This document shows positions 37,794-38,596 of a stretch of DNA of 64,000 nucleotides, one piece after another. Under the pieces are notes generated by a model. The model saw nothing but the letters and a program-made list of their open reading frames with translations. It ran no database searches and was not told where the DNA came from. The stretch comes from Octopus sinensis (taxonomy: Eukaryota). The position numbers were made by a program, and so were the translations under genes. The DNA is taken from assembly GCF_006345805.1 (NCBI RefSeq), contig NC_042999.1, positions 165,106,001 to 165,170,000 of the forward strand. The letters are read 5' to 3'. Numbering within the stretch: the stretch's first letter is position 1; the number at the start of each line of letters is the position of its first letter.

Positions 37794-38596
37794 AACATTA
37801 TTTACATTATTTACATTTGACAGATATTTGTCCTTATCTTGTTTGTTGTTAACGTTTCGGCTGATATCCTCCCCTCCCTCCAGCCTTCATCCGGTGTCTT
37901 GGGGAAATTTCGAACCTGGGTTCTCATTCCTAAGGTATTTTTCGATGTTATTATTATTATTATTATTATTATTATTATTATATTATTATTATTATTGTTA
38001 TTATTATTATTATTATTATTATTATTATTATTCAGGTCACTGTATAATAATAATAATAATAATAATAATAATAATAATAATAATAATAATAATAATGATA
38101 ATAATAATAATAATAATAATAATAATAATAATAATAATAATGATAATAATAATAATAACATCGAAAAATACCTTAGGAATGAGAACCCAGGTTCGAAATT
38201 TTTCCATGACACCGGATGAAAGCTGTGGAGGGGGGGGCGAGCTGGCATACGCGGCGAGCTGGCAGAAACGTTAGGACGCCGGGCGAAATGCTTAGCGGTA
38301 TTTCGTCTGCGTTACGTTGTGAGTTCAAATTCCGCCGAGGTCGACTTTGCCTTTCATCCTTTCGGGGTCGATAAATTAAGTACCAGTTACGCACTGGGGT
38401 CGATGTAATCGACTTAATACCTATGTCTGTCCTTGTTTGTCCCCTCTGTGTTTAGCTCCTTGTGGGTAATAAAGAAATAGGTATATCAGCCGAAACGTTA
38501 ACAACAAACAAGATAAGGACAAATATCTGTCAAATGTAAATAATGTAAATAATGTTAATAATGTACATAATTCCCCATCTCTTAAATATAGAACTG
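37794..38596. mobile_element. Penelope-type inverted-repeat element with degenerate hammerhead; right arm interrupted by a SINE
   Basis: Arms 37794-38030 and 38045-38556 are near-identical inverted copies including TAA tracts. One-sided tail of about 40 bp. Motif GACAC-CGGATGA-AGGCTG..CAGCC-GAAACGTT. Confidence 0.7.
38236..38479 (+). mobile_element. Tx1-tailed SINE family A monomer
   Basis: Complete head, core and tail ending AATAAAGAAATA; absent from the paired left arm. Confidence 0.9.

Follow-up and report, generated by a model that had tools for sequence, protein, structure and literature searches.

The window, a stretch of 64,000 nucleotides of Octopus sinensis DNA (contig NC_042999.1, positions 165,106,001 to 165,170,000 of the forward strand), contains several copies of one SINE family and two LINEs with tails homologous to that of the SINE. 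The features are as follows, in window positions (TSD, target-site duplication).

703..735, plus strand: remnant head of an older host SINE, ending in GGCATTT; upstream TSD copy
770..999, plus strand: full-length tailed SINE inside the older parent SINE, with the host-private GGCATTT in both TSD copies
22762..23140, minus strand: single-head dimer of a tailed left unit and a parent-type right unit starting at 22928, with an 18-bp TSD around the whole
37794..38556, no strand assigned: host repeat, palindromic around (TTA)n/(TAA)n; arms at 37794-37981 and 38125-38556
38236..38479, plus strand: SINE copy of the youngest subfamily, with internal AATACCTAT and tail GGGTAATAAAGAAATA, without a clear TSD
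38264..38270, plus strand: second landing site, AGAAACG, in the SINE head, within a motif that we take to be A-box-like (1,243 exact tail+AGAAACGTTAG junctions)
38297..38305, plus strand: main landing site, GGTATTTCG, in the SINE's own head, in what we take to be the A-box-like / B-box-like interval (24,817 exact junctions)
38416..38424, plus strand: subfamily-diagnostic AATACCTAT, complementary to the tail end plus the putative read-through ATAGGTAT(T)
38428..38479, plus strand: SINE 3' tail, homologous to the 3' ends of an L1/Tx1-type LINE clan
38480..38487, plus strand: target GGTATATC, located in the host repeat's stem-loop, with host matches and an independent same-site insertion elsewhere (L097)
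42556..45012, plus strand: second clan LINE; (ATT)n comes after its homologous tail
53770..54165, minus strand: single-head dimer with the right unit starting at 53932; the sequence of the first 20 bp beyond the site differs between the two units
62003..63297, plus strand: 5'-truncated LINE of the L1 group, with a homologous tail; it lies within (TATC)n

The subfamily of the copy at 38236-38479 has 5,419 exact 40-mer matches genome-wide and a body divergence of about 2%. The 5' end of this copy is a 15-nt duplicated head (38236-38250); short head duplications of this kind, seen also in L016, are the pattern expected from a 5' template jump. The box-like motifs of the head were recognized by eye only; ARAGORN reported 0 tRNA genes in the window, and an Rfam search gave no tRNA match in 37500-38800. 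The central part of the SINE is presumably Meta-domain-like (the 66-bp domain of MetaSINEs), and the family has both tailed and parent-type 3' ends. The copy occupies the stem loop of a hammerhead-like host repeat: the motif CTGATGA-stem-GAAAC is present in other copies of this repeat (L161-L170), and the window copy reads CGGATGA. We take this motif to be a hammerhead-ribozyme-like core and the repeat to be Penelope/retrozyme-like. A search of the host palindrome against Rfam gave no relevant match, and folds of the host repeat were not significant.

In the first-pass annotation, four tails in the window were said to be followed by GG(T/C)AT(T/A)TC, and this is what we found: GGCATTTC at 1000, GGTATATC at 38480 and, on the minus strand, GGTATTTC at both 22928 and 53932. 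Three of these junctions do run into the GGTATTTCG site of another family copy, and the fourth lies, as described, in an inverted repeat whose other arm has no SINE. That second arm reads GGAGGATATC, with the T missing and extra G-rich bases; it has thus mutated itself and offers no clean pre-insertion allele. We had considered the empty arm as proof that the GGT was RNA-derived. This was ruled out, since the host site reads GGAGGGTATATCAGCC in most of its 48 genome matches and GGTATATC is therefore native to the host. In L097 another SINE has inserted independently at this host site, flanked by an 18-bp TSD. At the first copy, the GGCATTT found at 729-735 is repeated at 1000-1006, directly after the inserted SINE. 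The two units of the dimer at 22762-23140 have GGTATTTCATCTGTC in common. Self-BLAST of the window also revealed a 5-kb self-similar block at 17012-21965.

We searched the genome (2.72 Gb) for the exact SINE tail and obtained 76,944 matches. A slightly shorter tail pattern followed by GGTATTTYG gave 24,817 exact matches, roughly one third of the tails, while reversed controls gave 0; the junction pattern is far above chance. Flanks were analyzed in about 2 Mb of fetched loci, mostly from the first 35 Mb of contig C1, containing 526 distinct SINE tails. Because loci were picked by an exact tail or subfamily match, young copies are over-represented; loci picked as dimers or double heads were excluded from the flank-class counts and retained in the structure tests. 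Among 132 tails from loci picked on the tail alone, 45 run into the GGTATTTCG site and 4 into the AGAAACG site; the remaining 83 are followed by other DNA. The 45 of 132, duplicated units included, exceed the share of one repeat in more than 20% of flanks by which Kojima defines target-specific elements (PMC4494074). The 83 non-SINE flanks start with TA (30), GG (20), AG or AA (19) or otherwise (14). The 8-mer GG(T/C)AT(T/A)TC, proposed in the first-pass annotation as an insertion motif, follows 36 of the 132 tails, yet only 1 of the 83 non-SINE flanks. These flanks are indeed non-random, but the core of the motif is shorter, 4-5 bp.

A TSD was present in 83 of 115 head-bearing copies, and in 64 it started exactly at the tail end. 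In the subfamily of the window SINE, TSDs of 8-22 bp were found in 36 of 54 non-SINE copies, and the pre-insertion site deduced from these 36 reads R-N-Y|G-G-T-A-T (R 33, Y 30, G 33, G 32, T 34, A 32, T 26). At these non-SINE targets the motif is present in both TSD copies. RNY|GGTAT(T) is therefore a genuine property of the target sites; its core spans 4-5 bp and extends weakly to TT. Insertions of the same youngest subfamily were also observed in the reverse strand of the SINE body, at GGTACTT and GGAATTT, forming inverted nests (L354, L356, L358, L318, L351). Short duplications of the tail end (GAAATA, or GGGAAATA in L144) precede GGTATT in L013, L117, L144, L156, L208, L254 and L255, as expected from template slippage at initiation; the duplication in L144 suggests that the template included GG.

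The family had been supposed to supply its own landing sites. Insertions into parent heads do occur, but most insertions lie elsewhere, and the share inside SINEs is near the abundance of the motif. In the youngest subfamily, 54 of 76 copies are outside a SINE and 22 are at the head site, 5 of the latter being internal array units. In 311 kb not chosen for SINE, SINE heads hold 11 of 94 RNY|GGTAT sites and 10 of 45 RNY|GGTATT sites. Compared with these abundances, the share of 22/76 is higher for the shorter motif (Fisher p 0.006) and not significantly different for the longer one (p 0.52). As SINE heads provide between one eighth and one fifth of the best sites, little extra specificity for the SINE is needed.

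The pattern of the four window copies does not extend to all tails: about half carry other flanks, TATAT or AGAAAC, depending on the subfamily. The three flank classes (GGTAT, TATAT and AGAAAC) follow SINE lineage. Of the non-SINE flanks, 46 of 54 begin with GG in the ACCTA/TAA group against 1 of 24 in the CCCTT/CAA group (p 5e-12; the CAA sample is 28 copies), and flanks of the latter start with AG/AA or TA. The AGAAACG head site is used by CAA-type tails; GGGC is found in the tail at 92 of the first 100 AGAAACG junctions listed, against 4 of the first 100 GGTATTTYG junctions (by eye). Among copies with the TAG tail, the class can be predicted from a body variant located 90 nt upstream (GG 7 versus TA 21 against 8 versus 1, p 0.0012), age being similar (4.9% versus 4.0%, p 0.27). 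Each non-SINE class copies the sequence that stands after the tail of that lineage in arrays, the match decaying over 7 bases. A purine at -3 is common to all classes (41/48, 23/27 and 14/19), as one loose enzyme would give, whereas at -1 only the GG class has a clear pyrimidine (36/48; 14/27 and 11/19 in the other two). Within CAA, A-type flanks belong to older copies than T-type flanks do (p 0.03), so that a turnover of partners in time is a confounding factor. In the youngest subfamily, three diagnostic changes form a 9-bp complement to the tail plus GGUAUU. The corresponding fold gave a z of -4.2 in L012 and of -1.2, not significant, in the window copy; folds of the LINE tail and of the tails of other subfamilies were not significant. 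Because AATACCTAT complements tail+GGTATT, the master of this subfamily would have sat before GGTATT.

Insertion into the head of a parent SINE, as claimed in the first-pass annotation, is real, being recorded in double heads that bear a TSD, including the one at 770-999. The succession of host head, TSD and new head gave 92 exact matches genome-wide. The 30 double-head loci examined collapse to 25 places, about 13 of which (by eye) repeat a host-private variant of the TSD on both sides. A 65-bp head+TSD unit also occurs in tandem (L134-L140, L147; G000:C3430:1372-2212), with up to 11 matches in one contig, and such tandem repeats have likely expanded from double-head insertions.

Double heads are rare, with 2 of 118 first units, and the remaining 116 have a single head. 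Such a structure, together with a TSD around the whole array in 34 of 79 cases and the rarity of shared private variants in the TSD zone (5/23 at offsets 0-10, 1/37 at 10-20), would also be produced if dimers were copies of one or a few composite masters, without any targeting. The parent subtype P* points the same way: it follows the tail in 40 of 51 cases and is over-represented among single-head dimers (32/46 versus 2/11, p 0.004), although this may reflect either re-copied composites or the greater ease of homology with young hosts. The comparison of left and right monomers proposed in the first-pass annotation argues against this explanation. The left body is the younger one both in P* dimers (0.053 versus 0.089 on the right, n=32, p 1e-4) and in P1 dimers (0.050 versus 0.119, n=11), about 5% against 9-12%, which refutes one dimeric master. 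This age asymmetry and the motif at non-SINE targets refute composite masters as the sole cause, and TSD-bearing double heads do exist; we regard an origin of the dimers from such masters without targeting as very unlikely, while composites may account for a share of them. In the youngest subfamily, heads of single-head dimers are more divergent than those of free monomers (7.5% versus 4.1%, p 0.004), bodies do not differ significantly (2.8% versus 2.2%, p 0.09), and head divergence tracks that of the right monomer (rho 0.44, p 0.02). The idea that most dimers moved as whole units was weakened by these tests of head and body age. Resolution of the 5' junction by homology, which had been claimed to be frequent, is thus supported for part of the single-head dimers, but the same head test in the older CCGTT/TAG group was not significant (p 0.10) and the correlation was negative.

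Arrays could also arise after insertion, by local DNA duplication or unequal exchange through GGTAT microhomology. Neighbouring internal units of long arrays share private variants in 53-67% of cases over the first 40 bp and in 15-26% further on; these many common variants indicate that local duplication also acts, and L012, L014/L015 and L092 are clear examples. This process is unable to make tail+parent junctions or the motif at non-SINE targets, and no rare variant is common to the first unit and its right neighbour in 62 of 99 cases. We therefore find it extremely unlikely as the general origin of the arrays; it applies only where tailed-tailed arrays have private variants in common. The dimers had been interpreted as targeted insertions, and this holds for part of them, others being local tandem duplications or possibly re-copied composites.

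The tail of the SINE is homologous, without being identical, to that of several LINE families. Fuller copies of the LINE at 62003-63297 encode APE (PF03372), RT (PF00078) and a C-terminal zf-RVT (PF13966) of the L1-group type. The closest solved structure is human L1 ORF2p (E 1.5e-46), and the nearest named protein among 120 matches listed is from Argonauta hians (68%); no named Tx1 reference was among these 120 homologues. The assignment of the clan to Tx1 is putative, based on target behaviour and on the presence of L1-Tx1 among the active LINEs of Octopus vulgaris (PMC13282606). The (TATC)n family (62003-63297 in the window; L031-L060, L241-L243) is young, very abundant and often stacked, with 24,004 first-look candidates and 96-99% identity among the best 150. 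Its tails have TATC within 7 nt in 36 of 39 cases and never stand before GGTAT, and this LINE is likely not the partner of the SINE. The window LINE had been considered as the only partner candidate, an idea dropped once sister LINE families turned up.

Targets differ among the clan families: (TATC)n, (ATT)n, (TC)n and another tRNA SINE, with elements at both head sites of the present SINE as well. Further clan LINEs with the tail followed by (ATT)n or (TC)n were observed in L069, L157 and L332. Another LINE family is joined to AAGTAGCTTGC in a different tRNA-like SINE (L076:330-620; L242, minus strand, below 7949; L020:1500); its tail shares TGTCTGTCCTTGTTTGTCCCCTCT with the present SINE, and a tailed SINE lies 3 nt away in another copy of the AAGTAGCTTGC-bearing host. 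A search for a Tx1 subfamily with the same 3' flank as the SINE had been suggested. An ORF2-coding sister, a fragment 39-52% identical to the first LINE family, is joined to the head-site variant CGTATTT (L018), but no LINE with the exact SINE tail was detected in the roughly 2 Mb of loci or in two pattern searches, which returned only SINE fragments or the (TATC)n family. Near-identical non-SINE tails were found at both head sites, in L361 at GGTATTTCG and in L362 and L363 at AGAAACG, with no ORF2 match in the 1 kb seen. L362 and L363 are elements that carry long (TGAAA)-rich repeats and a clan tail at the AGAAACG head site.

We propose, with somewhat more belief than doubt, that targets are set by a loose LINE endonuclease together with pairing by read-through SINE RNA. 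The proposal builds on the homology of the tails, the TSDs beginning where the tail ends, the target motif, the parent-head insertions and the three lineage-linked flank classes, from which we infer read-through, RNA-DNA pairing and the identity of the partner. A borrowed enzyme of the L1/Tx1-type clan would nick at a loose RNY|nnTA-like site. The SINE RNA would extend past the tail end AAAGAAAUA: TTTT, the T4 terminator, is absent from the window copy, so the transcript of a source copy would run on past the tail, and a source lying in the head of another SINE would be transcribed into GGUAUUUCG (or AGAAACG). For TATAT, we assume that the read-through source was a master in a TA repeat. The nicked DNA would pair with the next RNA bases and prime reverse transcription from the tail end, and the first target bases would thus be set by the RNA. 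Daughters would land at similar sites, a fraction of them again in SINE heads, giving either a TSD and two heads or, often, a 5' end merged with the host head by homology, with the promoter rebuilt. A merged copy would be a new source whose RNA again bears GGUAUUUCG, so that the preference would be inherited in cis. Long arrays would also grow via local duplication and possibly via re-copied composites.

Alternatively, specificity could be coded by the endonuclease, several sequence-specific Tx1-type LINEs each moving different SINE lineages to GGTAT, AGAAAC or TATAT. The distinct target of each clan LINE, such as the TATC of the (TATC)n family, means that different partners could explain the classes and lends this alternative considerable weight; the ORF2-coding LINE at CGTATTT and the non-SINE tails at GGTATTTCG and AGAAACG are consistent with this, and different Tx1-Mar families have been proposed to move different SINEU families (PMC4494074). 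The test for RNA overwriting the target was moreover balanced in the unbiased subfamily, with 2 cases in either direction (by eye), and a AATACCTAT hairpin could hide the very bases that must pair; both count against RNA pairing. On the other hand, a single tail variant splits into flank classes by body variant among copies of similar age, both head sites harbour near-identical non-SINE tails, and no exact-tail LINE appeared in the two pattern searches or the roughly 2 Mb of loci. In addition, each class is identical to the read-through sequence, a match that RNA pairing accounts for without invoking coincidence. We consider several partners possible but rather doubtful as the source of the specificity, and the two explanations are compatible with each other. 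Returning to RNA pairing, we tentatively extend it, at just short of even confidence, to a self-programming retroposon, in which an RNA guide taken from the last landing site is inherited by each SINE lineage and the target evolves in cis while the enzyme is unchanged. Landing in its own promoter region would make new source genes carrying the guide, and the hundreds of thousands of family copies would be both landing pads and guide templates.

How far the target choice of non-LTR elements depends on the endonuclease, and how far on RNA-DNA pairing, can be approached in this family as in a natural experiment: its insertions number in the tens of thousands, its tails are near-identical, and its targets fall into three classes. 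If the initial bases are set by the RNA, the donor RNA alone would suffice to reprogram targets, which is relevant to retrotransposon-based gene insertion. Self-insertion also explains modular SINE arrays in a group of genomes in which SINEs are about one tenth of the DNA (11.6% in Octopus vulgaris; PMC13282606).

Our literature search found no paper on the targeting of this SINE; Repbase entries or supplements may describe the family. It resembles MetaSINEs in its tRNA-like head, conserved central part and exchangeable 3' tails (PMC4824008). The microsatellite-specific Tx1 families Kibi and Koshi (PMC4494074) have counterparts in the window LINEs, which lie in (TATC)n and (ATT)n, and in another in (TC)n; this likeness concerns the LINE clan, whose clade is putative, and not the SINE's own targets. 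The closest parallel in targeting is SINEU/Tx1-Mar of crocodilians, described as having an unrelated Mariner element as target with a specificity of up to 90% (PMC4494074). In both systems the target preference is as in Tx1-type LINEs, two hot spots in one host repeat are used by different families, and tandem copies arise by sequential insertion (PMC4494074). Unlike SINEU, as that source presents it, the octopus SINE targets its own head, with a 4-5 bp core and a motif that changes with lineage. The Alu hot spot at position 133 is likewise one base within its own family, used in sense orientation (PMC2836564). The Alu site follows an A-rich linker (PMC2836564), whereas the octopus SINE has no poly(A) tails and uses mixed-sequence sites in the promoter region; most of its products keep one head, and about one third of its tails are at the head site. 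Annealing between RNA and target is described for SART1Bm and R1Bm (PMC7265360), and snap-velcro priming for L1 (PMC3649969). In those elements, as in our proposal, the 3' sequence of the RNA anneals to the nicked target and starts reverse transcription. However, pairing there tunes accuracy at an endonuclease-fixed site or at T tracts (PMC7265360, PMC3649969), whereas in the octopus SINE pairing is proposed to shift the preferred site between lineages of one non-autonomous element.
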